A DNA stretch of 63,048 nucleotides, filler included, from Reclinomonas americana ATCC 50394 (GCA_048213135.1; 13 parts of 13 records of this genome joined end to end with filler, not necessarily neighbours in it); one strand, 5' to 3'; counted from the first letter of the whole stretch, positions 17,006 through 52,040 are shown. The notes: a model not told the origin generated them from the sequence alone. Program-made: numbers and translations.

Positions 17006-19871
17006 CTATCGCACGTACGCATTGGTGTTGCTGACGTCGGTAAAATGACGCAGCGACGGCGCAGAGCCTGATCCGCGACGAGTAACGCCGGGCGCCGCCA
17101 GTGGTGACGGCAGTGGGGTAACCGTGCGACGGAACGTGGGCGGACTGACGAGTGACGGACGCGCGTGCGATGGTGTCGGCGGCACAGCGGTGGAGCTGGC
17201 GACGCTGCTGCCGCTGCCGGGCTTGATGTCGTCCAGCATCGCTCGCAGCCGGTGCAGCGAGGTGTCGACCGATGACCACAGATCGCGGAAATTGAGCAGC
17301 GACGAGCGAGTCTGGTGGAACGATGTGTGCACGGCGGCCTCCAGATGATTAAAGGCGCCCTTGTCGTCGGGCGGAACAAAAGTCGAGGGCGACGGAATCG
17401 CCAGAGGCGACAGTGGCGCCGACACTGGTGAGTCTGCCGTCGAAATCAACAGTCGCTGGTACTGCTTGTGCACGTCGAATGTCGACACGGGCGACATGGG
17501 CGTGGTGGTGTATGGCGAGGTCGAGTGTGCACTGAGATAGGTCGACGAGCCAGCCGACAGCGGAGGCGACGGCAGCGTGCCGCCAGAAGCCGTCAACGAG
17601 GCGCCGATGGTGCCGCCAGCGGTACCGGTGACTGTGGTGGAAGAAGCGGAGGAACGCAGCGTCGTCGCATCCATGATTGCAGGCTGTGGCGTGGCAAACA
17701 TCGACAGCACAGGTGTGCGCAGTGGTGGCGAGTACACGACGGGATGCGTCGGCACCGACAAGACTGACGGCGCCAACTTGGGCGCATCGGAACCACTCAT
17801 GGGCGCCTTGGGCGGCGTGCCAAACGCCGGCGGCGGCAGCGGTGGTCGACTGGCACTGTACCGTGGCGGCGGAACAAACACCATATCCGACAAAGAAGAA
17901 GCGGCATGCACACTCTGCGCAGACGAGGTAGGGGCGGCGGTTGGCTCGTGTGACCACATGGGCTGTCGTGGTGGCGGCGGCAGCGGCACCGCACGCTCCG
18001 TCACCACCTTGGCCTCGAGCGGGTCGAAAAGCGGCCGACGTGACCGCTCCCCGGGCGACGGAGGGGCGGGTGGTGGCAACATGGGCATCGCGCGACCGGC
18101 GAGCGAATCCAGCGACATGGACGGCACTGGTCTCGGCATGCTGGCGTCGCTACTGTACATGGAGTTGTTGTGGTTGTGGTTGTGGTTGTGTGCGACAGCA
18201 ACTGTCGTGTCTCGTACTGCTGGCGCTGGCGATGCGAGTAATGAAGGCGCGGGTGGCGGTGGCGAGGATTGCAAGGCGGCAAGCTTGTCTGCCGGCTGCT
18301 TCGCCGACAGCAACGACTCGATGCCTTGTCCACACAAAGCACCGAGCAAATCCCATGCCTCGCGAAGCAGAGCGTCAGCTGTGGTACTCCGCCCACCGAC
18401 CTCGGTCTCGATCTGCAGAAAGAGTCCCACCAGCTCACGCAGCAGCTCAGCCTGCTGCTGCTGTTCAAAGTGGACCATGCGCTCCATGTCGGCGGTCGAC
18501 GGAACGGCGGTTGTGGTCGTCGTGGTCGTCGTCGTTGTCGTAGTGGTGGTGGTGGTTGTCGTCTGCGTCGCCCACGGCGCCAGCGGCGCACTTGTGGCCG
18601 ACAGCTTCCCGTTGGGTGAGGACGGCACTGCAAGTGCCTCGGTGGAGCTGTCGCGACGATGAAACGCCGGCGGAGGCGGCAACAACGGCGCAAACATCGA
18701 CGTGGAGAGGAGTGACGGCGGCGTGGCCGAGTCGAGCGGCAACGGTGCCGCACGACCAGCCTCATCCGGCCCCGCGGTCGTCCCATTCGCCGTCGTCGCC
18801 GCTCCCGCCGCCGTCATTGCTGCCGCACTCATCACCATTCCAGTCGGTGAGAACGGTTCCTGCGACGCCCGATTCGACACGATACGACTCGCCGTGGGCG
18901 ACACCACACGACTGCCTCCCGCCGATGTCGAGTCGGCCAACAACAGCGTATCCACTGCGTGAGCGTGCACCGTTGTGTGAGCACACACATCGAATCACCA
19001 CTGGTACCAAGAAAGGCCCTCCCATCCAATCCAAATCACACTCACACTCTGTAATGGTCTGCTCCAGCCGCGCCTCGATCGGCAAGAACGTGGGCACATC
19101 AAAGAAGCCCTCGCCATCCTCATCATCGTCATCATCTTCGTCGTCATCGTCATCGTCAGCGGCCGCGGGATGACGGCGATGCACAAACTCATCGGCGATT
19201 CCTTTCCGCGGCTTGCCGCCGTACTGGAGCAGATAGTCGACAAACTCAGGCACCTCGGGGTTCGCCTGGCACACAAGAACTGAGCATCGCACACAACCGA
19301 CCCCAACAACACACACAATACTCAATACTTCATGCACACACACACCTCCAACACGTTGCTCTGTCGTCGCTTTCGACCGGACGTTGGGCTCTCTGTCGGG
19401 AACACCAAGCACAAGTACTAACACACAAACACCACCGCACGAGTGAGCAACACGAAAAGAGGGCGCGCGCGTACGCGCCATGACCATGACACACACACAA
19501 ACCTGGAACACCGAGGCCGGGATGGAGGCCTTGCGTGCCGCAGCCATGGACGCCTCACTGTGATGATGATCGTCTGCACTCGCCACATCAGCAGCCTCCC
19601 GCTGGTGCTGCTGCAGGGCATCGACCAGCAGACGATGATCCACGACATCATACGCCGACGCCGGCGGTGGTGGATCGCGCCCAATGAACGATGGTGTGCG
19701 GTGCTTGAGCCGCAGACGCGCACGTCGCGTTGTCAGCACTCGTGTCGCAGTCGACGATGAGGTGGTCGTCGTGTGAGTGGTGCCGTCCTCATCGTCGCCC
19801 ACGAGACGATCAGAGGTGGCGCGCTGATGCATGCCGCGTCGACTGGAGGTCGAGTCGGCTGGCGCAGCCAT
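17006..19871 (-). CDS. Low-complexity Pro/Ser/Thr-rich protein of unknown function; multi-exon
   Basis: A long open last exon (660-aa ORF) with poly-T, poly-Q and (HN)n tracts. Upstream acidic exons. No recognisable domain. Confidence 0.6.
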
Positions 19872-38074: not shown

Positions 38075-39400
38075 TTTCTATTATTATCGGCGTCGTCGAG
38101 CCTCTCGGCGGTGACCGCCAACGGCGGAGTGCTTGTGCTCTCGAGCGCCTCGCTGCTCAACCTCGACGCGAGCCCGGCCAAGCTCACCGTTGGCGCCTCG
38201 GCGGTGTACTCGCTGCGCGACGTCGTGTACAACATCGCCGGCTCGACGATCAGCGGCACCCGCTCGCCAGCCACGCTCGTCAGCGACGCGATGAGTCTGG
38301 CCGGCCTCGCCATGAACGGCGCGAAGATCACCGGGCTGGCGAGCGGCACGGACAGCGGCGACGCCGCCACGTTCGGCCAACTGTCGACGCGCCTGCCGCT
38401 GACCGGCGGCACGATCTCTGGCGGACTTACTGTCGGCGGCAACCTGACCGTGAACGGGACTGCCACGACTGTGAACAGCTCCATCACGACAGTCGACAAG
38501 TTGCTCGTCGCCACGATCGGAGGCGGCGATCCGGCGCTGGCTGTGCAAGCGAGCGGCACGGCGCCCATCATGGTCGTGACCGACACGGACAGCGATGACA
38601 CCTTGTTCTGCATTGACAATGGAGCGAAGCTCGGGCTTGACACCGAGGATCCCGCGGTCAGCCTCGACATGGGTCTGCGCAAGGACGGCGTAATCCTACC
38701 GCGCGGCACGACGGCGGAGCGGCCGACGGCGGCCGCTGGTCTGATTCGCTTCAACAGCCAGACGAGTAAGTTCGAAGGCTGCACCGACGGCTCGACGTTC
38801 GGCGTAATCGGCGCGCCACCGACCGCCGCCGAGGTCACATTCTCGCCGACCGGCGGTATCAGCAGCACGACGGTGCAGGCTGCCGTCGCGGAGCTCGACT
38901 CGGAAAAACAGCCCCTCAACAGCAAGCTCACGAGCATCGCGGGCAGCACCGGCACGCCGTCGAACGCGACCTTCTTGCGCGGCGACTACACGTGGGCCGC
39001 TGCCGGCGGTGGGGTGCCGTACGCGATCCACATTCGCTTCCGCCTGAACAACGGTGGCTTGGCGGCTAGCGCGATCACGCGGTACGACGGTGGGAGCACG
39101 CTGACCATGGTCACCAGCGCGTCGCCCGCCTCGAACGAGATCGGTTTCCGCCGGCTCAACGCGGGCCAATTCCAGCTGCTGGACGGCGTGAACGGAGCCA
39201 TCTTCGGGCCAGCCAACAGCTGCCTCCTGCGCATCCACATGACGATGATGGCGACACTGGGCTTCGCGAACCAGAGCTTTGGCGCTGGTGAGACCGGCTC
39301 GAACGGCGCGTTCTCGTTCAACACCTACAACAACGGCACGGCGACCGACTACGCCTTCGCGCAGTTCGAGGTGCTCGTCTACTCGGCCGCCATGAGCTGA
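38075..39400 (+). CDS. Tail-fibre/adhesin-like virion protein, 5' truncated
   Basis: YadA-neck-like KITGLASGTDSGDAATFGQL and phage fibre motifs LPLTGGTISG, LPRGTTAERP..GLIRFN, TVQAAVAELDSEKQPL and TFLRGDYTW. Rich in G/S/T/A. Confidence 0.75.
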   Translation, partial: FLLLSASSSLSAVTANGGVLVLSSASLLNLDASPAKLTVGASAVYSLRDVVYNIAGSTISGTRSPATLVSDAMSLAGLAMNGAKITGLASGTDSGDAATFGQLSTRLPLTGGTISGGLTVGGNLTVNGTATTVNSSITTVDKLLVATIGGGDPALAVQASGTAPIMVVTDTDSDDTLFCIDNGAKLGLDTEDPAVSLDMGLRKDGVILPRGTTAERPTAAAGLIRFNSQTSKFEGCTDGSTFGVIGAPPTAAEVTFSPTGGISSTTVQAAVAELDSEKQPLNSKLTSIAGSTGTPSNATFLRGDYTWAAAGGGVPYAIHIRFRLNNGGLAASAITRYDGGSTLTMVTSASPASNEIGFRRLNAGQFQLLDGVNGAIFGPANSCLLRIHMTMMATLGFANQSFGAGETGSNGAFSFNTYNNGTATDYAFAQFEVLVYSAAMS

Positions 39401-39452
39401 GTCTCTCGCGTTTAGAGGCCGGGCGCTGGCTCGGCAGCGTTTTTGACTTCCA

Positions 39453-40112
39453 ATGGCAAGCGGCTCAGGCCCCCCCACGTTCATCGTCACCGGCACGCCG
39501 GCCGCAGCGCCCGCAGCACTGCCAGCAGCCGGCGCGGCGCCAGTCATCGTCACGGCTCTCTGCGAGGACGGCAGCCGCGACTACCCGTTCCCCCAACGCG
39601 TGATCGACGCGTACCCCAAGCTGCTCGACGCCGAGACGCGGTACCTCATGATCAGGCTCGACTGCGGCGCGTACGAGCTGCTCCTCGGCCAGCCGATCAG
39701 CCTCGTGAGCAACCGCGTGCTGAGCGACCGCGACGATCGAAACCGCCTGTTCTACGTGTGCGAGGCGCTGGGCCGCAAGCTGACCGACGGCGAGCTGCAG
39801 TACGTGTGCGAGGCGACGGGCATGAAGGACGCTTTCCGCGCCGTCCGCCGCCATCTGAAGGGGTTCGGGCGCAAAGTCGCCGAGTGGCTCGGCAGCAAGA
39901 AGCTGCGCAACTGGTCGTTCGACAACGACGACGGCCTGCGCCACATGTTCCCGGCCGCCACCGCGCAAGGCATCGACACCTCGCGCCTCCTGCACCTGAT
40001 CGATCGCAAAGACTATGGCGGCCTGTTCAAGCTGAATCTTGAGTTCCCGTCGCTCGCGCAGACGTTCCTGGACGGCTACAGCCGCTTCGCGGGGTTTCTC
40101 GGATCCGTCTGA
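39453..40112 (+). CDS. Hypothetical viral protein, 219 aa
   Basis: Clean ORF with strong GC3 bias and globular composition, directly after the fibre gene. Confidence 0.75.
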   Translation: MASGSGPPTFIVTGTPAAAPAALPAAGAAPVIVTALCEDGSRDYPFPQRVIDAYPKLLDAETRYLMIRLDCGAYELLLGQPISLVSNRVLSDRDDRNRLFYVCEALGRKLTDGELQYVCEATGMKDAFRAVRRHLKGFGRKVAEWLGSKKLRNWSFDNDDGLRHMFPAATAQGIDTSRLLHLIDRKDYGGLFKLNLEFPSLAQTFLDGYSRFAGFLGSV

Positions 40113-40250
40113 CGAGCAAGGGATCCTTAACCGACTCCACCGCCTCATGGCGGATGCCGAAAAAGCGACCGCGCTGCTGCAGGCCATTCGGCTTCTTGTG
40201 CAGATCGGTTTCGCGGTCGGCGTGGCAGTATGACGGCTTGTAGCCGTCCG

Positions 40251-40511
40251 TCAGTTTTTCCGCAGTGCCGCTCGGCGCTTGTCGGCGGCGTCGTCGAGCT
40301 CGAGATCGCGCATCGCCCGCTCCTCGGCGGACATCGGCGGCAGCGGCGCCAAGGGCTCGTGCTCGATGTAGCGGCAGCCGTACTGCGTCTCGACGACGAA
40401 GCACACCCGATCGTCGACGAGACAGTGTCCGACACGCTGTCCTTTGCTGCTGCGACCGGTCCACGCGACGCTCGGCCACAGGGACCGCGGGAGGTTGGCC
40501 CAGAGTGACAT
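40251..40511 (-). CDS. Hypothetical viral protein, 86 aa
   Basis: ATG lies 8 nt after the stop of the upstream co-oriented ORF; protein-like composition. Confidence 0.55.
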   Translation of the reverse strand: MSLWANLPRSLWPSVAWTGRSSKGQRVGHCLVDDRVCFVVETQYGCRYIEHEPLAPLPPMSAEERAMRDLELDDAADKRRAALRKN

Positions 40512-40519
40512 GTCGACCG

Positions 40520-41122
40520 CTATTGGGGGGCGGCAGACTTTTCCCGAAATTCGTAAATAACTGCCGCGTGTCCGTCATTACTGGCCTCGCGCGCGGCAAG
40601 GGCGGCGGCGAGGTCCGCGACGCGCTGGCCGAGGAGCTGAGACAGAGCGTCGAGCGTGAGGCCGCGGAGAACAGCCGGCTCGGCTTCCCCGGCGCCCGGA
40701 GGGCCGACCGACACGCGGTCTCCGGGCTGAATGCTGAGCGCGCCCTCCAGATGCGGAATTCTGTAGGCGTCGGCGCTTTCGGCCTCGCGGAGCATCCTGA
40801 CCGCTTCGGTCAGGACCGCATCCAGAGCGTTGGCCACTCGGGCCTCGTAGAACAGGTACGTCCCGTAGTGCTGAACCATCTGGCGACTGCCCCGATCGTC
40901 GCCCGGATAGTCGGCTCGCGCTCGAGCCTCGCACTCCCTGCAGTCATAGTTCGAGTGCTTAGGGCATGGGAGCTTGGAGTTGACGATTGACATATGCATG
41001 TAGTGGGATTGGTCGTATACGCGCAACGCGTCTCCGTCCTCGAACCTGAGGCGGGGAGCGTCGCCATCGCGCACCAGAACCACGCATGGGTTTTTGCGCG
41101 TGACCAGGTAGAAGTCGCCCAT
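40520..41122 (-). CDS. Hypothetical viral protein, 200 aa, with a CxxH-x4-CxxC putative Zn site
   Basis: Contains CPKHSNYDCREC. The ATG directly follows copy 1 of the 57-bp repeat. Confidence 0.7.
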   Translation of the reverse strand: MGDFYLVTRKNPCVVLVRDGDAPRLRFEDGDALRVYDQSHYMHMSIVNSKLPCPKHSNYDCRECEARARADYPGDDRGSRQMVQHYGTYLFYEARVANALDAVLTEAVRMLREAESADAYRIPHLEGALSIQPGDRVSVGPPGAGEAEPAVLRGLTLDALSQLLGQRVADLAAALAAREASNDGHAAVIYEFREKSAAPQ

Positions 41123-41126
41123 GTCG

Positions 41127-41183
41127 TGCTATGTGTGTCTTGTAAAAGGCCGGCCAGTTTTATTTAATTCCCGTCGCTCTGCG
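41127..41183 (-). promoter_or_regulatory. 57-bp intergenic direct repeat, copy 1
   Basis: 55/57 identical to 41864-41920. Contains AATTAAATAAAA and the GGCCGGCC palindrome. Ends 4 nt before an ATG. Confidence 0.8.
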
Positions 41184-41224
41184 CCTGCCGCCGGAACAAA
41201 AAGCGCGGCAGCCGCCGAGGGTGG

Positions 41225-41857
41225 CTACTGTACGGGGGGCGCCATAGCGCGCACGATGTCTTTGATCCTGGCGCGGTTCCGTTCCACGAGCGCCAAGACG
41301 CCCCGGCGAATGCCTTGGGCGCACGCGTCCGCTGCTGCGGCACAGAGTGCAAAGTGCGGGTCGCTGATGGGCGCCACCGGTGAGAACCACTCGGCGCCCT
41401 GGCTTCCGCAAACCTCATACTCGGCAGGGTACCCCTTGCGCGGGTAGAGTACCACGTCTTCGTGGCCAGGAAGGCAGTACGAGAACTCTTTCAGCCCCGC
41501 CTCGCGCAGCGCCGCAAGGCCTTTCTCGGCCGCCGTTTCTACGGCATCTAACAGGTGCCCGGAAAGCACGGAGAATGCTTCCAGGACCAGGCTGCCGTCC
41601 ACGCCAATGATCATTCTGCCAGAGGGGGCGGGGTTGGTGGGGTAGACGTACACCATTTTCGACCAAACCCCCGGGCGGTCGGAGAGATCGCGCTCTCTAT
41701 CCGACACCATCTTGAGCCTAGCCGGCTTGTCGGCCCGGCACTCCAGTACCAAATTCGAAAACTTCCAACCCGTGCCAGCCAGTACGACGGTGACAACGAC
41801 TGGCGCGTCCTCGGCCGGCGCTGCGCTGCCGCTTCCAGTGGCGGTGTCGTGCTCCAT
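41225..41857 (-). CDS. Hypothetical viral protein, 210 aa, bracketed by the two 57-bp repeats
   Basis: Clean ORF; the ATG lies 6 nt after repeat copy 2. Confidence 0.7.
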   Translation of the reverse strand: MEHDTATGSGSAAPAEDAPVVVTVVLAGTGWKFSNLVLECRADKPARLKMVSDRERDLSDRPGVWSKMVYVYPTNPAPSGRMIIGVDGSLVLEAFSVLSGHLLDAVETAAEKGLAALREAGLKEFSYCLPGHEDVVLYPRKGYPAEYEVCGSQGAEWFSPVAPISDPHFALCAAAADACAQGIRRGVLALVERNRARIKDIVRAMAPPVQ

Positions 41858-41863
41858 AATCGC

Positions 41864-41920
41864 TGCTATGTGTGTCTCGTAAAAGGCCGGCCAGTTTTAT
41901 TTAATTCCCCTCGCTCTGCG
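41864..41920 (-). promoter_or_regulatory. 57-bp intergenic direct repeat, copy 2
   Basis: See copy 1. It also supplies the TAA stop (41903-41901) of the upstream ORF. Confidence 0.8.
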
Positions 41921-42143
41921 GCCGCGCTTGGAGCGCCTGGCCCATGCGTATCACCAGGTCTGACAGAGTCCTGTCGATCTCCGCTCTCGCCTCGTCCAGG
42001 CCAGCGATTGGCGCAGTGATGTCCTCCAGCGAGTTGTCTCGTCGGCGCAGCAGCGCGTAGCGGCCGTTCGGCAGCTGCAGCAGCCCCCACCGCTCGCCGT
42101 TCTCTCGCTCCAGAACCCAGTCGACGGCTCCGAGTCCGGGCAT
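41901..42143 (-). CDS. Hypothetical viral protein, about 80 aa
   Basis: MPGLGAVDWVLERENGERWGLLQLPNGRYALL...; it fills the gap before the divergent AT-rich spacer. Confidence 0.55.
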   Translation of the reverse strand: MPGLGAVDWVLERENGERWGLLQLPNGRYALLRRRDNSLEDITAPIAGLDEARAEIDRTLSDLVIRMGQALQARPQSEGN

Positions 42144-42212
42144 CGCGTATTCAGCTGCACAGACGTCGGGCTCGTGCAATTTAAACGCGCCGGGCGGGCC
42201 GCATCGCGCAGA

Positions 42213-42755
42213 ATGCCGCCAAAGAAGCGTGCCGTCGTCGAGCGTCCGCCAAGCCCCGAGGACGAGAGCGAGCCGGAGCCCGACCTCGAAACCGAGACGA
42301 AAACTGACGATGCACCAGCTGCCAAGCCGGCGCCGAAGACGCGCGCCGAGAGGGAGAGGGAGCGGTACGCGACCGACGCGGCATACCGGGAAGAGAAGCT
42401 GCGACGCGCGAGAGAGTATCGCGCGAAGCTGCGAGAGAAGGTCAACGCCGTGCAGGCCGACGACGAGCCGAAGCCGAAGCGCGCCGCTCCGCCAGTGAAC
42501 GGCGACGCGCTGCTGTATCTTGTTGACAGGCTTGACCGCGAGCGCAGCAAGCGCCGCAAAGTCAAGAAGAGTCTGCAGGCGCTGCTGCAGGTGGCGATGG
42601 GCAGCGCGGAGCAGGCCGATCCTGAGCCGCCGGCACTCGACGCGAAGGCCGCCCCTCCCGAGCCAGCTGACGTCTCGCCGCCGCCAACTCCGGCAGCGGT
42701 GCAGGAGCTCGACCCATTTGGACCGCGCCCGCAATCCGCCAGGCGTAGACGATGA
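42213..42755 (+). CDS. Basic/charged helical protein with an NLS-like N-terminus (possibly DNA-binding)
   Basis: MPPKKR start and a charged helix RERYATDAAYREEKLRRAREYRAKLREK. Confidence 0.7.
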   Translation: MPPKKRAVVERPPSPEDESEPEPDLETETKTDDAPAAKPAPKTRAERERERYATDAAYREEKLRRAREYRAKLREKVNAVQADDEPKPKRAAPPVNGDALLYLVDRLDRERSKRRKVKKSLQALLQVAMGSAEQADPEPPALDAKAAPPEPADVSPPPTPAAVQELDPFGPRPQSARRRR

Positions 42756-43552
42756 GTCTGAAGACGTACACCCCGATCCTGTACGGCGGACGCGCAGCAC
42801 GCGCGTTTCTCGGACCAGGCTTCCAGGTCGCGGTGCAGCCGCACTCGTTCACCGACCCGGATGCCATGCAGCGGCGTGAGCTGGAGCTCGCCATGATGGC
42901 TGGCAAGCGTGCCGGTCGCCGCAAGATCCAGCTCATCCTGCAGCTCGACAAGGACAAGAAGGAGGCGGCGAAGGAGGCGGCGAAGGACGAACGCAGCAAG
43001 CAGAAGGCCGCCAGCCTCGCCTCTTCGGTCAAGCGGCTCGAGGAGGTGCGCGCGGCACTCGGCAATCCGTCGGCTCCGGACCCGAGCCCTCTCGCCGCGT
43101 TCGGTGACAGAATTCCCGGGACTGGGCTCGCTGGACAGCTCGAGGGGCTCGGCTCCCAGCTGTACCAGCTTCCAGCCGTGTCCGCGGCTGAGATCGATCG
43201 GGCGCTGGGTGAGCGGCTCGACGATATCGGCATCGATCTTTCTCGACTTCCGTCAAGGGCCGCCGACGAGTTGCAAGATCGGCAGCGCGTGGTGGACGAG
43301 ACCGACCCGCTGGTCGGCCGCCCCGGCACCGCACACGCGCAGCGGATCATCGCCAGGCAGGGCGTCGTTCCGACCGACGCGCTTATCTCGGCACTCTGGT
43401 CGGCGCTCAACCCGAAGCGCAAGACACCGTACACGGCTGAGGACCTCAGAGCGGCACTTGCTCGCGTGGGTCGGGAGCAGCCAAAGCTGATCCAGCGCTA
43501 CCCGGATCCGGACGGTGGGGCGTCCGGCAGCGGCGCTCCCTTCCCGCGATAA
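42752..43552 (+). CDS. Hypothetical viral protein, 266 aa
   Basis: ATGA overlap with the upstream stop codon; central charged helix; GC3-biased codons. Confidence 0.7.
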   Translation: MSLKTYTPILYGGRAARAFLGPGFQVAVQPHSFTDPDAMQRRELELAMMAGKRAGRRKIQLILQLDKDKKEAAKEAAKDERSKQKAASLASSVKRLEEVRAALGNPSAPDPSPLAAFGDRIPGTGLAGQLEGLGSQLYQLPAVSAAEIDRALGERLDDIGIDLSRLPSRAADELQDRQRVVDETDPLVGRPGTAHAQRIIARQGVVPTDALISALWSALNPKRKTPYTAEDLRAALARVGREQPKLIQRYPDPDGGASGSGAPFPR

Positions 43553-43580
43553 AGAGGGGGCAGCCACGGCTTTTTTAGCC

Positions 43581-43805
43581 ATGAAGCTGCTCAAGGTGCA
43601 GCGCTACGAGCCGCCGGGCGAAGCGCGCCAGGCCGCGATCCGCGACGAAAAAACCGGCGAGGTCTACGCTCGAGCGTTCGCCCCTCACATCGACCAAGAG
43701 TACAGGCCGCCTACACCTGGGGCAAGACCTCCAGCCGAAAAGCCCGCCCCGCCAGCGCCGGCAGAAGGGCCAGCAAAGCCGAAGCGTCGGCGCCGCAAAC
43801 CGTGA
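43581..43805 (+). CDS. Small basic protein with a C-terminal NLS-like KPKRRRRKP
   Basis: GCCATG start after a T-rich spacer; overlaps the convergent ORF. Confidence 0.5.
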   Translation: MKLLKVQRYEPPGEARQAAIRDEKTGEVYARAFAPHIDQEYRPPTPGARPPAEKPAPPAPAEGPAKPKRRRRKP

Positions 43806-44118
43806 TGCACTCGGCGGGCTTGGCTGCCACGCGCACCTCCGTGGCTTTCACCGAGTGGTCGACGATCGGAGTCGGCCTGACGGCTGGCTCAATGACGGCC
43901 TCCGGCTCAGCGGCTGGCTTCCCCTTCGGACGCCCTCGCTGCAGCCTCGGCAGCAGCTCATCTGTGCGCGCCGCACCGATCGTCTCCGCCACCTTCTGGC
44001 GCACATTGCAGCGCGCTGAGCCGGTCAGATGGTAGTAGTCCTCCTTTGTTTTTTCCCATTCCTCGCCGGTCGCGCCAGCGGCCACCAGCACGCAAATCTT
44101 CTTGGAGAATGTCGCCAT
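43711..44118 (-). CDS. Hypothetical viral protein, 135 aa
   Basis: ATG preceded by A-rich TAAAAACTC; contains an AT-hook-like RGRPK. Confidence 0.6.
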   Translation of the reverse strand: MATFSKKICVLVAAGATGEEWEKTKEDYYHLTGSARCNVRQKVAETIGAARTDELLPRLQRGRPKGKPAAEPEAVIEPAVRPTPIVDHSVKATEVRVAAKPAECITVCGADASALLALLPALAGRAFRLEVLPQV

Positions 44119-44195
44119 GAGTTTTTACTGTGTGGTACCATCTACCTTCTCTAATTTTCCGGCAAGTAGTGTGGCTGAAAAAGTAGTCCTCGGCT

Positions 44196-45950
44196 TTAGA
44201 GTCCGAGGAGAGCGTCGAGCTCTTCGACCGACATCGAGTCGAGGACGGCGAGCGCGTCATGAGCGTCCGGAGCGGAGGCGGGCTCGGGCACTTGCACCGG
44301 GGCTTGCTCCGGCCCCGGCACCTGCGTTGGCTTCGGCGGGTGGTAGGCCGGTCGATCGGCCATGGCTACGCCGCTTCCGCTGCCGCTGCCACTGCCGCAC
44401 GTCTCCGGCTCGTCGGCGTCGGTGCGGCAGAACTCGGGGTACATCGTCTCTTCGCGGAACCGCTCAATCTGCGCCTCCAGCGGCTCGAAGACGTACCAGG
44501 CCGTCTTCATCTTCCCGAACGGAAGGTTCTTGCAGAGGGCGCACCGCTGGAGGTCCTTGCCGAACGTCGGAGCCGAAGGGTGGGTGTTTCGGCCCTCCGG
44601 CGAGGTGGCGAACGCCTCGTAGAGGACCGAAGTGGGGACGCGCACGGAGGGGCTGCCGAGGTGGTCCGGCATAGGCTTCGCGAGCGAGAACCAGCGACGA
44701 CCCGCGAGCTCGGTGACGTACGGGAGGCCAGACCCCTCCAGGATCTGGCGGCTCTTCTGACCGCCGATGGATCCGGCTGGCGGGTAGTTGCAATTGACTT
44801 CGAGGCCGCCAGCCGAGAGGACCTTCGACCACCAGCGCTCGAACCCGTGCCAGCCCTCTGGGATCAGCTCGCGAAGCAGCCCCGTCTGGGGCGGCAGAGT
44901 GTTGGCCCAGTCGTCCGAGATCTCGGTCTCGTACAGCCAGCGAGCAAACGGACGCACGTCGCGTTTGAGGGCCTTGAGCGCGGCGATCTGCTCCCGGTTG
45001 AGCACCTCACTCGGCTCGAGGACGAGCCAGCGGCGGGTGCCAGAGCCGGCCGGCAGGATCTTGCGCTCGTTCGAGGCCAAGATCAGGCCGCCGTGCGTGT
45101 TGGCGGTGTACGCCTTCTTGTTCTTCTCGTTGATGTGGCTCGTGCCCTGCGTCACGAGCGCCTTCAGCATCGACGAGACGAGGCTCGAGGAGCCGGCCCA
45201 GCCGACCTCCGTGCCGAACACGAGGTGGCAGCGCTCCTTCCAGGCGGTGAACTGCCCGAGCATCACCTGCTGGTCGACGATCTTCGTGTGGGCCATGCCC
45301 ATGACCTCGGTCATGAGCTCGAAGAGGAAGTCCTTGCCCTCGCCGCCGGCCTTGCCGAACAGCACGACGGCGCTGTTGTGCTTGAACGACGGCTGCTGGA
45401 CGAGCATCGCCAGCCAGGCGCGGAACCAGTTGAAGATCGTCTGGTCCTTCCCCGCGAACGACCAGATGAGGTCGATGGCCGGCTTGGCGTCGGCCACGTC
45501 GACGCCCGGCGCGCAGGCCTGCTCGCGGCCAATCGCGAAGCCCTTGAACTTGTTGTGGAACCCGCGCGCGAGCTTGGAAACCAGGTCCGGGCGCGTCGGC
45601 GGAGGCGCGTACACGACGCCCGGCACGGAACGAGCCTTGGAGCTCTTCGCCCAGATCTTGGCGAACGGGACGTCCACGTCGTCGTCCTCGCGGTTGCGCG
45701 CGAAAGCGACGCGCACGGTGACGTTCGGGGTGTCGCGGATCCACGTGTACTGGGTCTTCGGTTCGAAGTCGACGATGTCTGTGCGGAAGACCTGGCGCGG
45801 GTCGTCCTCGACGATCATCCAGAACTGGTTCATGTACTCCACGATGTGCGGCTCCAGGAACTTGAGCAGCTTTTTCTCGTTGGGGAAGGCGGGGGCGTCG
45901 GCCACCACCTGCTGCAGGCGGGCCTCGAGCGCGGCAAGGGTGAAGGACAT
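44196..45950 (-). CDS. Superfamily 3 helicase (D5/NrS-1 DUF5906-like) without an evident primase domain
   Basis: WLAMLVQQP; Walker A VLFGKAGGEGKD; Walker B region LVFGTE; LKALVT..INEK; motif C LILASN; Arg finger RRWLV. Confidence 0.85.
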   Translation of the reverse strand: MSFTLAALEARLQQVVADAPAFPNEKKLLKFLEPHIVEYMNQFWMIVEDDPRQVFRTDIVDFEPKTQYTWIRDTPNVTVRVAFARNREDDDVDVPFAKIWAKSSKARSVPGVVYAPPPTRPDLVSKLARGFHNKFKGFAIGREQACAPGVDVADAKPAIDLIWSFAGKDQTIFNWFRAWLAMLVQQPSFKHNSAVVLFGKAGGEGKDFLFELMTEVMGMAHTKIVDQQVMLGQFTAWKERCHLVFGTEVGWAGSSSLVSSMLKALVTQGTSHINEKNKKAYTANTHGGLILASNERKILPAGSGTRRWLVLEPSEVLNREQIAALKALKRDVRPFARWLYETEISDDWANTLPPQTGLLRELIPEGWHGFERWWSKVLSAGGLEVNCNYPPAGSIGGQKSRQILEGSGLPYVTELAGRRWFSLAKPMPDHLGSPSVRVPTSVLYEAFATSPEGRNTHPSAPTFGKDLQRCALCKNLPFGKMKTAWYVFEPLEAQIERFREETMYPEFCRTDADEPETCGSGSGSGSGVAMADRPAYHPPKPTQVPGPEQAPVQVPEPASAPDAHDALAVLDSMSVEELDALLGL

Positions 45951-46060
45951 GAGCGGTGGGTGGGGTGGGGTGGGTGGGGTGGGGGTGGGTGGTGCCGCGT
46001 ATACGGGGCAGGCAGAGTCTCTAACAAAAAATTATTTTACCCACTTGGACATTTCGCTCG

Positions 46061-47974
46061 ATGGGTATATCGCACATGGCCGCCCGTCGCCCTCTGGACG
46101 GCATCGTCGTCGGAGAGAAGTCGAAGGCGCGTGGACAGGTGCGCACGTACGCTCTTGGCGTTGACCAACTGCAGGAGGCCGGCCTCTCGGTCGCCGACGC
46201 TGCCAAGCGGCTGGCGCAGCCCGGCCAGCGGGTGTCAGCGGTCATCATCTCTCGCGACAGGCGCACATTCCCCACCAGCGCCGTCGCAGCCGATGAGGAC
46301 ATCTCGTTCGCCTCGTACGGCGGCACGGAGGGACGCGAGATCGGCGACGAGAACGACCTCGTCGCGTGGCTGGACGATCACCGCGACGCCATCTCCCAGG
46401 CATATGTGACTGTGTACGAGGCGGGCCGCCGCGTTGGTGGCGAGGGCGATTGCCTGCTGGCGGCGATCGTCGAGTACCTGCGAGAGCACGGTGGCACCCG
46501 CCGCCGCTTGCCAGTTGACGACGAGGACTTCTTCTACGAGGTGCGCAGCGAGCTTGGGCTCGCTCCTGGTCCGATCGACTATGCGGCGGACCTGCCGCGC
46601 ATCGAGAAGTATCTCGGCTGCGGCGTTGAGGTGCTCGACGCGGCGTCGGGTGAGGTGCTCCACGCGCCGTCGGTCGAGTCGCCGCTGCGGGCGGTCGTGC
46701 AGGTCGCTGGCGGCCACGCGACGCTCAGCTATCGCCGCGGCGTCTGCGGCATGGCCTACGCGAAGCGGCCGCTCAAGCTCGTCGCCTGGGCCCAGGGCGT
46801 CTCTGGGCGGGTGTTCGCGTTTGACGGAACCGCCACCATCGAGACCTCCTTCACCGAGCTGTTCTCGCACAAGTACTGCTTCCTCAAGGTGGGGGAGAAG
46901 CTCGCGTCGGTCGAGAGCGCCGACGCCATGCTCCGCGAGGCACACGCGCAGGCGCTCGAGAAGCGTGAGGCCGTGCTCACCGCCGTCGGAGTGGACATGC
47001 TGCGCCTCGGCACGTTCTCCGACGCGCAGGTCGCCCAAAACATCTGGCGTCGCGACTGCCTGGCAGTCACGTTCCGAACGCTGCCGCAGGATCAGGAGCA
47101 CCTCTTCTCGCGGGCGATGGGCGGCGGGTACATCTACGCGGAGCGCGGGTATGAGGGGCCAGCGATCGAAGTTGACTACAGCAGCTTCTACCCGAACCTG
47201 ATGCGCGCGACGTACCGCGTTCCGTACACGGCTGGTCGGTGGGTGGAGGACTTCGAGCCGTACCGCGAGCTGCTCGCCGGCTGCTCGTCTACGGTGGTGA
47301 AGAAGTTCCCCGTCGCGCTGTTCTCCGTGCGGTTCGACGCGAGCGAGCTGCGCGCCATCCACATGCAGCCGCGCGCCATCTACACGTCGTACGAAGTGTG
47401 GCACGCGCTGCGCCGTGGACTGTCGTGCGAGCCGATCTCCGGCGCCCGCCACCTCGTGTGGGAGTACGAGCAGACCGTGCCGCTCCGCACGGCGTTCGGC
47501 CCGTACGTGGACAAGCTGATGCCCCTCAAGGAGGCTGGCCACAGCTTCGCCAAGGGGCTGCTCAACGTGCTGTGGGGCGCGCTGTGTCGCCGCACGCGCC
47601 GCGTCGAGTCACACAACGATGATGATGAGTGGCGGCTCCCTGAGGGTGCGATCATTAACCTCGCCACCCCCATCTCGCAAGATGCGACGGTGTACGAATG
47701 GCGGCTGCCGGAAGACCGCGTGTTCGCTGGTGCAGCGCCACACGTCGGGCCGTTCTTGACCGCGCTGGGTCGCGTGAAGGCGTCGGCGTTCTGCCTCAGT
47801 CTCGGCGGCAAGCTGGAGGCTCGGATCGTTCGGTACCACACTGACGGCGGCACGGTGGCCACCACCGACCCCGAGCGCGTTGCGGCCGCCATCACTCGCG
47901 ACGCCCAACTGAAGGTCAAGCGCATCGGCGAGGTAAAAGTTGGCGCCGCCAACCGCAAGCCGACGTGGGTTTGA
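46061..47974 (+). CDS. Compact protein-primed family B DNA polymerase with an N-terminal OTU-like domain
   Basis: AMGGG, motif A DYSSFYP, TPR1-like YTSYEVWHALRRG, motif B KGLLNVLWG, motif C YHTDG; OTU-like GDCLLAAI...GGHATL. Confidence 0.85.
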   Translation: MGISHMAARRPLDGIVVGEKSKARGQVRTYALGVDQLQEAGLSVADAAKRLAQPGQRVSAVIISRDRRTFPTSAVAADEDISFASYGGTEGREIGDENDLVAWLDDHRDAISQAYVTVYEAGRRVGGEGDCLLAAIVEYLREHGGTRRRLPVDDEDFFYEVRSELGLAPGPIDYAADLPRIEKYLGCGVEVLDAASGEVLHAPSVESPLRAVVQVAGGHATLSYRRGVCGMAYAKRPLKLVAWAQGVSGRVFAFDGTATIETSFTELFSHKYCFLKVGEKLASVESADAMLREAHAQALEKREAVLTAVGVDMLRLGTFSDAQVAQNIWRRDCLAVTFRTLPQDQEHLFSRAMGGGYIYAERGYEGPAIEVDYSSFYPNLMRATYRVPYTAGRWVEDFEPYRELLAGCSSTVVKKFPVALFSVRFDASELRAIHMQPRAIYTSYEVWHALRRGLSCEPISGARHLVWEYEQTVPLRTAFGPYVDKLMPLKEAGHSFAKGLLNVLWGALCRRTRRVESHNDDDEWRLPEGAIINLATPISQDATVYEWRLPEDRVFAGAAPHVGPFLTALGRVKASAFCLSLGGKLEARIVRYHTDGGTVATTDPERVAAAITRDAQLKVKRIGEVKVGAANRKPTWV

Positions 47975-48000
47975 ACACGCCGGCTCGTTTTTTGCATCAC

Positions 48001-48324
48001 ATGCTGTCGGTGCCGGCGAGTGTGCGAGAGGAAGCGCGGCGTGGACTGCGTTGGCGGGCTGAGCTCGGACGCGGTGGCATCGGCCCAGGCCAGGCGACGG
48101 CACGCATGCTGGCGAGTGGCAAGTTGTCGCTCTCGCGGCTCGTGAAGCTGCGGTCGTATCTCGCGCGTCACGCGGTTGACAAGCGAGGGAAGGGATTCGG
48201 CGAGAACGAACCTGGCTTCCCGTCCGCCGGTCGCGTGGCGTGGGCTCTGTGGGGCGGTGACGCCGCGTGGGCGTGGGCCAACGATGTCATCGCTGCCATC
48301 CGCCGCGCCGCTCGTCGCTCTTGA
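48001..48324 (+). CDS. Small conserved phage-like domain protein, 107 aa
   Basis: VREEARRGLRWR..GRGG...RSYLARHAVDK...PSAGRVAWALWGGDA, a pattern I recall from uncharacterised tailed-phage head-module proteins. Confidence 0.7.
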   Translation: MLSVPASVREEARRGLRWRAELGRGGIGPGQATARMLASGKLSLSRLVKLRSYLARHAVDKRGKGFGENEPGFPSAGRVAWALWGGDAAWAWANDVIAAIRRAARRS

Positions 48325-48346
48325 AGCGACGGCCGCTCACCCCACG

Positions 48347-49297
48347 ATGGAGGCGGCACTCGCTCGTCTGATCAAAAACGGCGGCCAGGGGCTTGGCGCT
48401 GAGTCGCTGCGGCAGCTGCTCGCCGATGATGGTGTGAAGGCACCGCTCGCTCGCATCCGAGAGTACCTGCGGTCGCGTTCGCAAGTGAGTGAGACAATGG
48501 GCTCTCTGCGCAATGCGAACGCGCTCGCTCACGCACGAAGGATCGAGGTGTCTGTGCCGAACGAGCTGCACCACGCCGATCTGCTCCAGCTGCCGAAGGA
48601 TCGGCGCATGCAGTATGCGCTGGTGGTGGTCGACGCGGCGTCGCGCTACAAGGCCGTCGAGCCTCTGCCCGACAAGCACCCTCTGGAGGTGGCGGCGGCA
48701 TTCCGCAAGATTTACAAGGAGACGCCGCTCCAGTGGCCAGAGCGGCTCAACGTTGACGGCGGCACTGAGTTTCGTGGCGACGTGGCGAAGCTGTTCGAGA
48801 AGCACAAGACAGAGGTGAGCCGTGGGCTGAGTGGCGACCACCGACACACGGCGTTCGCAGAATCGGCGAACCGTGTGCTTGGTCGGCGGCTGTTTGCCTT
48901 CCAGCATGAGCAAGAGGAGAGGAGCGGCAAGGTGAACCGAGAGTGGGTGAAGCAGCTGCCTGGCGTCGTCGCGGTCATGAATCGGCTCAAAACCCGGCTG
49001 ACGGGACTCGCGCCGGAGAGAGCCGTTGAGCAGAAGACAGTCGCGCTCAAGCCGTCTGTCTCACACTCGCGTGAGCTGGCAAAGGCAAAAAAGGAAGACA
49101 CCTTCCTTATCGCCATCGGCAGCCACGTGCGTATCCCTCTCGACAAGCCGGCAGATGGGGGGCGGTGGAGAGAGACAGACTTGCGCTTCTCTGACAAGAA
49201 AAAGGTGCTCGAGCAGCGCTGGCTGCCTGGACGGCCGCTTGAGTACAGAGTGGAGGGAGACCCTCGCTGGTGGATGAAGGCGCAGCTGCGGTGGTAG
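48347..49297 (+). CDS. Retroviral-like (rve) DDE integrase, Polinton type
   Basis: PNELHHADL, YALVVVDAASRY, LNVDGGTEF and AFAESANR give a D..D-x34-E triad; WVKQLPGVV.VMN...TGLAP; SH3-like C-terminus. Confidence 0.93.
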   Translation: MEAALARLIKNGGQGLGAESLRQLLADDGVKAPLARIREYLRSRSQVSETMGSLRNANALAHARRIEVSVPNELHHADLLQLPKDRRMQYALVVVDAASRYKAVEPLPDKHPLEVAAAFRKIYKETPLQWPERLNVDGGTEFRGDVAKLFEKHKTEVSRGLSGDHRHTAFAESANRVLGRRLFAFQHEQEERSGKVNREWVKQLPGVVAVMNRLKTRLTGLAPERAVEQKTVALKPSVSHSRELAKAKKEDTFLIAIGSHVRIPLDKPADGGRWRETDLRFSDKKKVLEQRWLPGRPLEYRVEGDPRWWMKAQLRW

Positions 49298-49399
49298 CGG
49301 AATTGCAGCGAAAATGCAGCGAAAACTCTGCAGAAGTGCGGTGGGGGGCCAGCCAGTCACATCTCGCAGTCCGTTGGACACGCCACGCACTCCCACACC

Positions 49400-49606
49400 A
49401 TGCCGTACGACATAGTGAGGCAGCCAGGTGGGTACCGAGTGCGCGTCGCGCACAGCGGGCAGATGCTCAGCCGCAAGCCGCTCACTCTGACGCGAGCGAA
49501 GAAGCAGATCGCCGCTGTCGCCATCAGTGAACGGCAGCACGCACAGATGCTGGCCGAGGCCAAGAGGAGCGGGGGTGTCGTTCGCCGCAAGACGCGAAAG
49601 CCATGA
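49400..49606 (+). CDS. Small basic protein, 68 aa
   Basis: MPYDIVRQPGGYRV...LSRKPLTLTRAKKQ resembles small 'MPY' proteins I recall from virophage/PLV genomes; CACCATG start. Confidence 0.6.
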   Translation: MPYDIVRQPGGYRVRVAHSGQMLSRKPLTLTRAKKQIAAVAISERQHAQMLAEAKRSGGVVRRKTRKP

Positions 49607-49892
49607 GGGCACACAGTCGCAACCGGACAACCCCAACCGCGGCTAAAGCAGAAGACAACACCCAGGGCGCGGCTGAAGCAGTACGGCTGAAGCAGTAGGA
49701 AGCGGAGAAGAGGGAGTTGTCCGGTAGCCGCTTTTTTCGGGCGGCGCGCGGCCTCCGGCGGTGTGGCGCTTGCTGCTGCCTCGGGTGGGGGGNNNNNNNN
49801 NNNNNNNNNNNNNNNNNNNNNNNNNNNNNNNNNNNNTTAATTAATTAANNNNNNNNNNNNNNNNNNNNNNNNNNNNNNNNNNNNNNNNNNNN

Positions 49893-52040
49893 ATTGTGAG
49901 TCGTCTCTCTCTCTCTCTCTCTCTCATTCCTCTGCTTGCATTGATGATTGCTTTGTTGTCAGGATCTGTGTGCTCCGGATTTCGTGCTGTGTGCCAGCGA
50001 GCTGCACCACTTGTGTCGGTGAGTGTGAGGAAGCGAGAGAAGGAAGTGCGCTGGCTTGCTTGACTCACTCATTGTGGTAATGATTGCCAGGGAGCATGTG
50101 ACGGAGAGTGGATCGGATCTGTGTGGCGATGGGGTCATGTCGGTGGCCACTATGCATGAGGTTCCGCGTCGATTCCAACTCATGTACACCAACATGAAGG
50201 TTGCGTTATGGGTGTCTATTGATGCACAGTGCATCGCCAGTGATGTTGACATGAGAGAGAGCACCACAGATTGCATGCCCGCTGTGCCACGCACCCATGG
50301 TTTGTGTTTGTCAGGGAGAGTTGCTTGTCTTGGTCTCTCTCCTCACTGGTGGATGAACAGACGGTGGGCGACTATTACCGCACACATGGCCCATCGCAGT
50401 GTCCGTATGCATGCGAGAGGTGTGGAGAGCAGATGACGCTGGATCGCACGGCGGAGCACGAGTGGAGTGGATGCTTGCGAGAGTGTCCACTCGGATGTGG
50501 ATCAAGGCTGGCGCTGAGTGAGATGGTGGAGCACAGCTGGAGTGGGTGCATGCGAGTGTGTCCGCGTGGGTGTCAGCAGCTGTGTGCGCTGGCGGAGATG
50601 CAGCGGCATCTTGGTGAGTGGGCTTGGAGGAGAGAGATGTGGAATGATACTGATTTGTTCTCTTGTTGCAGAAACGGAGTGCCGACTGCAGCACACTGTG
50701 TGTCGTGGTGGTGATCTGGGGTGTGAATGGCGTGGTATCGTTGGCGAGAGGGAGGAGCATGAACGAGTGTGTGATGTGTTGCGAGTGGAGCGACCACTGC
50801 GAGAGGTTTGTGAGAGGAGATGTGATGAGAATGCACTCTCATTGTTCTGATTTGGGGCGTGTGTGGGTGCGCAGTTGCACATGCAAGTGCGCGGGCTGTC
50901 CCAGTTGGTGGCCGAAAGCAGAGAGCAGCTTGCTCAAGAGAGGGAGGCAAGACAAGCTGCGGATGAACGCCTTGGTCAATGCAGTCTGCAACTATTGGAT
51001 GAGCGGCAGGCACGACAAGATATGGAGGGGCGACTTATTAGTTGTATGGGGATGCTTGTCGAGTACTGTCAGCAACTGAAGTCCACAGACGAGCGCCTTA
51101 GTGTGTGTACCGAACAACTTGCGTCAGAGCGGCGCATGCGCGAATCTCTCGAGAGAGGTGTTGCTGAGGTCTGCGTTGTTATTGTTAGTGGAATCGACTC
51201 CATCTCTCTTCTCCTCATTCCGTCTCCTATCCATCTGCAGCTACTCGCCCGTCTCGAGCCGTTGGAGATGCGTGAGCGAGCGATCCAGGAGCGAGAGGCG
51301 GCTGAACGAGAGCGACAGGCCAGAGAGCAGGAGGAGCGTGAGCGACAGGTCAGAGAGCGAGAGGAGCGGGAGCGGCAGGCCAGAGAGCTAGAGGAGCGGG
51401 AGCGAGCGGTGTGGGCGAAGACAAGTGATCTGCTGAGTGCGGTGGATGGGCGAGTGGTGCTGCAATGGGTGCAGCAAGCGAGAGGTGGCGGTGGGAGTGT
51501 GCCCAAGCTGACGTTGCTGTTCAAGGGCAGTCGAGATGGATTCAGGGTAACCACGTTCCATCAGCGGTGTGACAATCGTGGGTGAGTGATTGCGGAAATG
51601 AGAAGGAGAGCACGGTGTGCTTGATAATTTATAGATGAGTGACTGTGTGCAGGCCAACGCTGACTGTGGCCAAGTCGTCGACGGGACAAGTGTGTGGTGG
51701 ATACACGCCTGTGCCGTGGCAGTCTGCGGGCAGCTATATTGCCGATCCATCTGGCACAAGCTTCTTGTTCTCCGCGTCGTGGAGTGGTGCAACTGCGCGA
51801 CGCTTTTCACTGATGGACGATTACAAAGAGAATGCCGTGAATCACTACTCTGGGCATGGACCTACATTCGGAGGTGGACACGACCTTCGCTTGCTTGACA
51901 ACTGCGACAGCAACACCGATAGCAACAGCAACCTTGGGAACTCTTACCAGAGCACCGACGGCGCTGCATGCGACAACACGACCCTGATGGGATCGTATAA
52001 CTTCCAAGTGGCCGACTACGAAGTCTTCCTCGTTGAATGA
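49893..52040 (+). CDS. TRAF-type zinc fingers, coiled coil and C-terminal TLDc domain; multi-exon, 5' truncated
   Basis: CPLGCG..EH..C repeats and GCEWRG..EEHERVC; TLDc motifs LLFKGSRDGF..FHQRCDNRG|PTL, GGYT, SFLFS, GPTFGGGHDL, DYEVF. Confidence 0.85.

Follow-up and report, generated by a model that had tools for sequence, protein, structure and literature searches.

What kind of element is a compact, GC-rich contig without introns that lies among contigs holding exon-like fragments of eukaryotic genes? The window, that is the whole stretch of DNA that was analysed (63,048 nucleotides (nt), from the assembly GCA_048213135.1 of Reclinomonas americana ATCC 50394), consists of 13 contigs linked end to end by N44-TTAATTAATTAA-N44 spacers. 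Positions 38075-49792 form one separate contig of 11,718 bp with N spacers on either side, as read in the sequence at both borders. We conclude that this contig is probably a 5'-truncated mavirus-type virophage-related element (pMVRE group 1, in the sense of the Cafeteria EMALEs), associated with a eukaryote whose genome is GC-rich and bears introns. A preliminary description had called it a Polinton-like virus (PLV); the name mavirus-type virophage-related element fits better, given the architecture of its protein-primed DNA polymerase B (pPolB) and its trio of hallmark genes.

The guanine-plus-cytosine (GC) content of the contig is 0.66, against 0.524-0.595 in the other 12 contigs. Since at 66% GC open frames are abundant on both strands, open reading frames (ORFs) were selected by codon-position GC, the criterion being an uninterrupted frame with high GC at third positions (GC3, 0.75-0.90) and low GC at second positions (GC2). 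The result is a set of 12 solid ORFs plus 2 small candidates, which together cover 90% of the contig; all begin with ATG except the 5'-cut first one, and none requires an intron. Thirteen ORFs were scanned against Pfam, PHROGs and NCBIfam, and the 11 unassigned ORFs against PADLOC. The preliminary description, which spoke of an 11.7-kb intronless contig with about 15 compact ORFs, was right about length and introns and somewhat high in its count, and its "about ten ORFan-like genes" come down to about nine ORFs without recognisable relatives or any match in these four collections. It was also right that the contig is unlike its intron-rich neighbours and looks intact, with no obvious disruption: about 90% of it is coding, in uninterrupted ORFs, whereas the other contigs carry fragmentary, exon-like ORFs of eukaryotic genes (an acyl-CoA oxidase spread across two ORFs, an OCRL-like ASH domain with RhoGAP, UQ_con and TPR).

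The replication and integration module is complete. PolB, a superfamily 3 (SF3) helicase and an rve integrase are all full-length with their catalytic residues in place, and the combination of pPolB, stand-alone SF3 helicase and rve integrase that had been read from the sequence at the outset is borne out for all three genes by Pfam and NCBIfam matches, homologues and structure. Their positions in the window are as follows (aa, amino acids).

44196..45950, minus strand: stand-alone SF3 (D5/P4-like) helicase, 584 aa; matches DUF5906, phrog_1156 and TIGR01613
46061..47974, plus strand: protein-primed PolB, 637 aa; recognised by homologues, family profile and predicted structure
PolB residues 1 to about 122: putative terminal-protein region, by analogy
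PolB residues 126-228: vOTU protease domain, with Cys131 at 46451-46453 and His219 at 46715-46717
PolB residues 236-637: polymerase, with motif A D372, motif B K498 and motif C H593-T594-D595
48284..49297, plus strand: rve-family (retroviral-type DDE) integrase, 337 aa from the first ATG, without a chromodomain; NCBIfam and BLASTP matches, DDE triad

Direct scans with PolB gave no match in Pfam, PHROGs or NCBIfam; a word-indexed protein search returned nothing, and likewise nothing with the family alignment; phmmer found no meaningful match in the PDB, and tblastn no match in 50,697 phage records. Its relatives were recovered by an exhaustive HMMER search, which returned 458 proteins of about 600-650 aa, the best at 2.1e-44 with 34% identity. 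PF03175 (DNA_pol_B_2) is detected at E<=0.001 in 12 of the 25 relatives scanned, 8 of these lying above the cut-off. A family profile and a consensus were built from an alignment of 105 relatives (A1), and the profile recovers phi29 DNA polymerase (3.6e-10), the match covering motifs A, B and C. The motifs common to the family are GG..NDCL, HY, YDxxSxYPS, KxxLNxLWG and HTDG. The first two make up a signature upstream of the polymerase motifs that holds Cys131, invariant in the 105 sequences, and His219, kept in at least 90% of them; the other three are motif A (D372 invariant), motif B (K498) and motif C (D595 invariant). Between His219 and Glu345 the alignment contains no conserved acidic residue, which indicates that the exonuclease active site is absent. 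Motif C is HTDG or HTDS in nearly all of the 105 relatives, compared with the canonical DTD.

The predicted structure of PolB (AF2/AlphaFold; pLDDT 84.8, pTM 0.78) leads to the same family. In a Foldseek search of BFVD the top match was the 617-aa polymerase of the Cafeteriavirus-dependent mavirus (E 8.7e-29, TM 0.61/0.63), aligned over its full length in 675 columns, while adintovirus polymerases reached 2e-9 or worse; among solved structures phi29 polymerase was best, at 1.5e-7. The VIA all-against-all structural scan aligned residues 236-637 with phi29 polymerase over 320 residues (Z 20.4), and for residues 125-230 it returned 19 chains named OTU, bunyaviral vOTUs among them, at Z values of 5.7-7.1. 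Each of these Z values taken singly is below the safe level, and we make the OTU assignment because there are 19 matches, they share a common range, and the conserved Cys and His lie inside it. The polymerase domain begins at about residue 236, directly behind the vOTU domain, and the ORF stops at residue 637 after the thumb, the phi29 alignment reaching to this end. As modelled, PolB therefore has the mavirus-type layout, consisting of an N-terminal region, a vOTU domain and a polymerase without exonuclease. Within the vOTU-coding part, positions 46627-46674 consist of two tandem 24-nt copies (88% identical), a small in-frame duplication.

PolB is thus not a new polymerase lineage. The "lineage with an atypical polymerase" of the preliminary description has to be given up, as the protein is a mavirus-type pPolB of the kind described in PMC11071308 and its best structural match is the mavirus polymerase. 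The same features make a classical Polinton/Maverick very improbable. A pPolB together with an rve integrase is the original definition of that group, and Polinton pPolBs have the vOTU domain as well according to PMC11071308; but that account also has Polinton pPolBs retaining their exonuclease, whereas the present PolB, at 637 aa, is not a long pPolB and lacks exonuclease motifs. The contig also has a separate DUF5906 helicase, and in BFVD the adintovirus polymerases fall far behind that of mavirus. A PLV or transpoviron type, in which pPolB is fused to a superfamily 1 helicase, was considered too and rejected: the ORF ends at 637 after the thumb, and the sole helicase is the separate SF3 gene.

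The helicase matches Pfam DUF5906 (PF19263) at 1e-16 (62 bits, cut-off 27.6), phrog_1156 "DNA primase" at 4.6e-29 and TIGR01613 at 7.5e-7. The word-indexed protein search gave it a single weak match, and phage records with matches number 372, with 23-28% identity among the 20 matches listed. The elements conserved against three relatives are Walker A, Walker B, motif C and an arginine pair; in the alignment with P0001 and the helicases of two related loci, L004 and L005, the residues G199, G203, G205 and K206 (Walker A), E248, N294 and R306/R307 are invariant. These matches identify a separate DUF5906-type SF3 helicase. The integrase scores with the NCBIfam models for IS481 (1.7e-14) and IS3 (2.2e-7), and BLASTP aligns it at 5.4e-26 with the rve+Chromo integrase of L004 and at 1.2e-25 with the integrase of L005. 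D99, D158 and E193 are invariant in the integrase alignment, and D158 and E193 are 35 residues apart (D,D-35-E), as judged from which an rve-type integrase is present and its catalytic triad is intact. The trio of pPolB, DUF5906 helicase and rve integrase is the published signature of pMVRE group 1 (PMC13215967), and this too speaks against the novelty that had been implied for the lineage. What the contig adds is a new, divergent and GC-rich member of the mavirus-related elements.

The relatives of PolB fit this classification in their origin and gene neighbourhood. The ESM Atlas clusters nearest to PolB belong to Eukaryota (Mucoromycota, Parabasalia) and to Preplasmiviricota; one relative is annotated in a 7.1-Mb contig of the fungus Rhizophagus irregularis, and four of the 20 relatives looked up are on contigs of 15.8-20.0 kb. 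A scan with degenerate motifs found three IMG/VR contigs with relatives, of 27-30% GC against 66% in our contig, and a later scan with alignment A4 found two of the same contigs and one more short contig, L010. Locus searches returned nothing in viral contigs for the helicase, P0003 and P0010, and nothing in metagenome contigs for P0003 and alignment A4. L004 comprises 15.9 kb of a 17.5-kb contig (30% GC) and encodes a GIY-YIG protein, a 588-aa DUF5906 helicase, an rve+Chromo integrase, a 633-aa PolB, an HNH protein, a Pox_A32 ATPase (4.6e-11) and large unassigned ORFs. In L005, which comes from a 14.2-kb contig, the genes for GIY-YIG, helicase, integrase and PolB are ordered as in L004. The helicase-integrase-PolB trio is therefore present in both relatives that have long flanks, and all three genes of L004 match ours, PolB at 1.6e-18 and the helicase at 9e-6 in addition to the integrase. 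The arrangement differs, as the contig has helicase (minus), PolB (plus), a small ORF and integrase (plus), and the integrase of L004 has a chromodomain where ours has none.

Two further relatives are found on short contigs labelled as giant-virus bins. L003 (IMGVR_UViG_GVMAG-M-3300010158-43_000001; 4.3 kb of a 6.4-kb contig) carries a mavirus-type PolB and one unrelated ORF only, and L010 (IMGVR_UViG_GVMAG-M-3300024059-2_000001) also has a PolB of this type. Either virophage DNA was binned with its giant virus, or the gene is integrated in the giant-virus genome.

In a FastTree tree of 108 PolB sequences, our own unlabelled set, the contig groups with the metagenomic proteins P0002 and P0003 (support 0.999) inside a subclade of nine members. 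The Gly/Ala/Arg/Pro content of this subclade is 0.27-0.36, whereas the remaining sequences have a median of 0.175; this suggests a lineage with high GC.

Several observations weigh against the classification as a mavirus-type element of group 1. Our tree had no named references, and we therefore place the contig inside group 1 by structure and gene content. Confidence in the PolB model is low over residues 1-122 (block pLDDT 36-80), so that the terminal-protein label of this region is given by analogy. The integrase matches Pfam rve at 1.5e-6 with 28.6-28.9 bits, under the curated cut-off of 32.6. Nine of the 12 solid ORFs have no match in L004 or L005, and identities to relatives are low: for PolB 34% at best and 21% to the IMG/VR virophage-like contigs, for the helicase 24%. 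A close full-length match to a described family, which the preliminary description had named as grounds for denying novelty, is found in structure and gene set, while sequence identity to any relative is just 21-34%. Scans of the 13 ORFs against Pfam, PHROGs and NCBIfam, and of the 11 against PADLOC, revealed none of the morphogenesis genes of virophages proper (class Maveriviricetes), which code for a double jelly-roll major capsid protein, a penton, an A32-like packaging ATPase and a cysteine-type maturation protease. Finally, the supposed capsid and penton ORFs of L004, with 618 and 472 aa, have no sequence match in the PDB, which leaves the A32 ATPase as the one sign that L004 has a virion.

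Whether our element itself makes a virion is a question that bears on two ORFs with phage-like features.

38075..39400, plus strand: fibre-like structural ORF, 441 aa read, 5'-cut by the contig break; open from the first base, GC3 0.87; weak phage matches
48001..48324, plus strand: small ORF, of 107 aa if counted from the first ATG and 119 aa if counted from a GTG at 47965; matches phrog_2859 and, by tblastn, phages

The first ORF has no in-frame start codon before the left break and is open to it, so the contig is cut inside a gene and its left end is truncated, as had been proposed. Its matches are weak: YadA_stalk in Pfam at 0.0015, below the cut-off, phrog_697 "structural protein" at 4e-5 and phrog_25721 at 2.6e-5. 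By tblastn, residues 140-258 match 55 cyanophage records (E 3e-6 to 8e-6 among the matches listed), and its nearest ESM Atlas clusters, to be read as leads only, are all Uroviricota with scores of 0.84-0.87. A single-sequence fold gave no usable model (pLDDT 32). From these matches the ORF weakly resembles phage structural or fibre proteins. The 107-aa ORF, between PolB and the integrase, matches the unannotated phrog_2859 at 5.9e-22 and 12 phage records by tblastn (37-47% identity, best E 9e-12), and has no match in Pfam. The matching segment falls inside a "capsid maturation protease" coding sequence in phage DSL-LC01 and at the start of a "major capsid protein" coding sequence in Roseobacter phage CRP-821. 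With these two ORFs the earlier claim of phage-derived genes stands to the extent that some genes are phage-like.

In tailed phages the domain of the 107-aa ORF is situated near the N-terminus of fusions of head-maturation protease and capsid (Roseobacter CRP phages, Synechococcus S-CBS1/3 and Actinomycetia phage DSL-LC01). Here it stands alone in a eukaryotic virophage-like element.

The truncated left end carries a fibre-like gene, which suggests virion formation. In that case genes for capsid, penton, ATPase and protease would be situated past the left break, in some 5-8 kb, judged from relatives of 14-20 kb. The preliminary description thought this position of the capsid module probable; we treat it as a guess. 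The contig could instead belong to a capsid-less, plasmid- or transposon-like mavirus-related element, made up of the replication and integration module plus accessory genes and forming no virion, which we consider unlikely. Such a reading would account for the failure to find morphogenesis genes on 11.7 kb, and it has precedents: complete pMVREs without structural proteins are described in PMC13215967, which judges a large fungal lineage in group 1 to be likely plasmids, and one PolB relative comes from the fungus Rhizophagus. It leaves unaccounted for the phage structural or fibre-like ORF at the left end, which has no obvious role without a capsid, and the A32 ATPase of L004; moreover the contig is shorter than the 14-20-kb contigs of its relatives, which leaves room for a morphogenesis module. 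The phage-like domains also allow a third arrangement, in our opinion a doubtful one. A GC-rich mavirus-type lineage may have kept pPolB, S3H and rve and exchanged the usual accessory and structural genes, some of the replacements being phage-derived (the tail-fibre-like protein and the head-protein N-terminal domain), so that its virion or attachment apparatus would be different or it would have no capsid of its own.

That the contig is simply a bacterial phage, prophage or plasmid contaminating a eukaryotic assembly has hardly any probability. It would agree with the high GC and the compact, intronless genes, with the helicase matches in 372 phage records, with the phage-like fibre and head-protein domains, and with an integrase that scores with IS481 and IS3 models. 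Against this, PolB has no tblastn match in the 50,697 phage records; it belongs to a family of Eukaryota or Preplasmiviricota, and its predicted fold resembles that of mavirus and includes a vOTU domain. The helicase identities to phages are just 23-28% among the matches listed. Terminase, portal and HK97-type capsid were not found by Pfam or PHROGs among the 13 ORFs, although in an incomplete contig such an absence cannot be proved. Starts are ATG throughout, no Shine-Dalgarno-like sequence was seen in the upstream sequences of any intact ORF, and scans for tRNA and Rfam families gave no match.

We prefer, then, a truncated mavirus-type element, and its relation to the organism of the neighbouring contigs has next to be weighed. 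The element may be real and yet neither integrated in nor resident of that organism, being instead a virus genome in free or episomal form, the virophage of some giant virus in the same culture, or DNA from a different eukaryote in the sample; this we think rather unlikely, though it carries appreciable weight. Both ends of the contig are assembly breaks, and no host junction is present. Its GC of 66% lies outside the 52-60% of the other contigs, these hold no second copy or fragment of the element, and two relatives (L003 and L010) are on contigs labelled as giant-virus bins. An intact rve integrase, by contrast, argues for an integrating lifestyle. Codon usage is close to that of the exon-like ORFs of neighbouring contigs (relative synonymous codon usage, r 0.89; GC3 0.83 vs 0.75), which is weak evidence because such a correlation is expected between any two GC-rich genomes. 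Endogenous elements, moreover, are reported in PMC10120064 to be common in protist assemblies, to have a GC often unlike that of the host, and to be places where short-read assemblies break.

No inverted partner (terminal inverted repeat) of either contig end was found within the window. The adjoining contigs end and begin in (CA)n and (CT)n microsatellites (37940-37974 and 49893-49925), which makes simple repeats the likely cause of those breaks; the element's own termini are not microsatellites. In another contig, positions 17009-18994 have 65% GC and hold a long open frame of 662 aa on the minus strand and one of 373 aa on the plus strand; the 662-aa frame, the sole one scanned there, has no Pfam match.

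The remaining features of the contig are small ORFs, repeats and AT-rich islands.

39453..40112, plus strand: ORF of 219 aa, no recognisable relatives; codon-position GC 0.67/0.47/0.89; none in Pfam, PHROGs, NCBIfam, PADLOC
40251..40511, minus strand: small candidate ORF, 86 aa, separated by 8 nt from the 200-aa ORF upstream of it; codon-position GC 0.68/0.49/0.85; no family match; coding status inferred
40520..41122, minus strand: ORF of 200 aa, no recognisable relatives; none in Pfam, PHROGs, NCBIfam, PADLOC
41127..41188, minus strand: copy 1 of a 62-nt direct repeat, found by repeat search; candidate promoter with AT-rich core AATTAAATAAAACTG
41225..41857, minus strand: ORF of 210 aa, no recognisable relatives; none in Pfam, PHROGs, NCBIfam, PADLOC
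41864..41925, minus strand: copy 2 of the same repeat and again a candidate promoter, located 35 nt upstream of the 210-aa ORF
42213..42755, plus strand: ORF of 180 aa, rich in Lys, Arg and Glu, with runs PPKKRAVV and SKRRKVKK resembling nuclear localization signals (NLS); codon-position GC 0.76/0.52/0.77; none in Pfam, PHROGs, NCBIfam, PADLOC
42752..43552, plus strand: ORF of 266 aa, no recognisable relatives; its start overlaps the stop of the 180-aa ORF (ATGA); none in Pfam, PHROGs, NCBIfam, PADLOC
43581..43805, plus strand: candidate small ORF of 74 aa with C-terminal KPKRRRRKP, overlapping the 3' end of the 135-aa ORF; codon-position GC 0.75/0.57/0.69; coding status uncertain
43711..44118, minus strand: ORF of 135 aa, no recognisable relatives, chosen by codon-position GC; none in Pfam, PHROGs
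46020..46041, no strand: AT-rich island TCTAACAAAAAATTATTTTACC, candidate promoter, in the 110-nt intergenic region between the divergent helicase and PolB genes
49400..49606, plus strand: small ORF of 68 aa with basic C-terminus RRKTRKP; codon-position GC 0.65/0.49/0.78; none in Pfam, PHROGs, PADLOC
49607..49792, no strand: non-coding right end with short direct repeats CGGCTGAAGCAGTA, two to three copies (repeat family D11)

The right end is possibly near the end of the element. NLS-like motifs had been mentioned in the preliminary description and are indeed present in the translations as basic runs (PPKKRAVV, KPKRRRRKP and RRKTRKP), recognised by eye and not by a predictor. There are six AT-rich islands on the contig, four of them 20-35 nt upstream of start codons, at positions that make them candidate promoters. 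Two of these four lie in the 62-nt repeat (family D2, the two copies 94% identical), the island of copy 1 being 33 nt upstream of the ATG of the 200-aa ORF. Another is 29 nt upstream of the ATG of the 135-aa ORF, and the island at 46020..46041 precedes the PolB ATG by 20 nt and the helicase ATG by 70 nt. A "TCTA" motif is found upstream of PolB only. The 62-nt repeat precedes two adjacent genes of the same strand, the 200-aa and 210-aa ORFs, between which no similarity was detectable on comparison, and it looks like a duplicated promoter cassette.

These parts suggest how a mavirus-type element of this composition would work. Replication of its linear double-stranded DNA genome would be primed by the terminal-protein domain at the N-terminus of PolB, which the vOTU domain would free from the polymerase, with the SF3 helicase unwinding the DNA; the rve integrase would insert the genome into the nuclear DNA of the host. 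The AT-rich islands 20-35 nt upstream of genes, conspicuous against a background of 66% GC, would act as promoters, and a co-infecting giant virus may supply the transcription machinery that reads them, as it does for mavirus.

The contig is one more divergent, GC-rich and apparently intact member of the mavirus-related elements that colonise eukaryotic genomes, and its value is mostly that of a data point; it opens no new class of system. It indicates that an exonuclease-less vOTU pPolB with the conserved Cys/His and an HTDG motif C is also found in a high-GC background, and that a mavirus-type module can travel with phage-like fibre and head-protein domains. Mavirus-related elements may act as an inducible defence against giant viruses, and recovery of the full element with its host junctions would give a new host lineage and a hint of past exposure to giant viruses.

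Among known systems the closest is mavirus with the EMALEs of Cafeteria burkhardae, to which we compared the contig by published features and by the structural match, not by direct comparison with mavirus sequence. They share a pPolB of about 620-640 aa that has a vOTU domain and no exonuclease and matches the mavirus polymerase in structure over its full length, a separate SF3 helicase, an rve integrase, compact intronless genes, and candidate AT-rich promoters just upstream of genes. In PMC11071308 the mavirus pPolB is described as terminal protein, vOTU and palm, its exonuclease having been lost and a separate S3H helicase compensating, and in PMC8547959 the EMALEs carry 17-21 genes without introns, their target-site duplications measure 3-5 bp, and their promoter motifs are specific to the type, "TCTA" being given for type 4 only. 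The contig differs from them in that the fragment shows no capsid, penton, ATPase or protease, and nine of its ORFs are not shared. Tail-fibre-like proteins, for their part, have already been published for virophages (PMC12724248).

As presented in PMC13215967, pMVRE group 1 includes the maviruses and occurs in protists and fungi; its hallmark is a mavirus-related pPolB, and membership is set by the pPolB tree. DUF5906 is specific to the group, in which only pPolB is more frequent; rve and chromodomains are often found there too. The contig agrees in carrying pPolB, DUF5906 helicase and rve together, and is set apart in that its PolB belongs to the small Gly/Ala/Arg/Pro-rich subclade (9 of 108 sequences in the unlabelled tree).

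With Polintons/Mavericks and adintoviruses the contig shares a protein-primed PolB with an N-terminal terminal-protein/vOTU region and an rve integrase. Their polymerases keep the exonuclease and are much longer (the adintovirus target has 1413 aa), and the protease, ATPase and capsid genes of these groups were not found on the contig. A separate DUF5906 helicase is not known to be typical of them. PLVs and transpovirons with a Tlr1-like fusion of pPolB and S1H resemble it in having an exonuclease-less derivative of the Polinton-type pPolB (PMC11071308); in them the palm is fused to the superfamily 1 helicase, whereas here the polymerase ends after the thumb. The phi29 DNA polymerase, the only solved protein-primed PolB, has the same polymerase fold, with motifs A, B and C aligned, and differs in its working exonuclease domain, in the absence of a vOTU domain and in its separate terminal protein. 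Its motif C is YxDTD (YCDTDS), and in the HTDG of the contig PolB a His replaces the first Asp while the second, D595, is kept.

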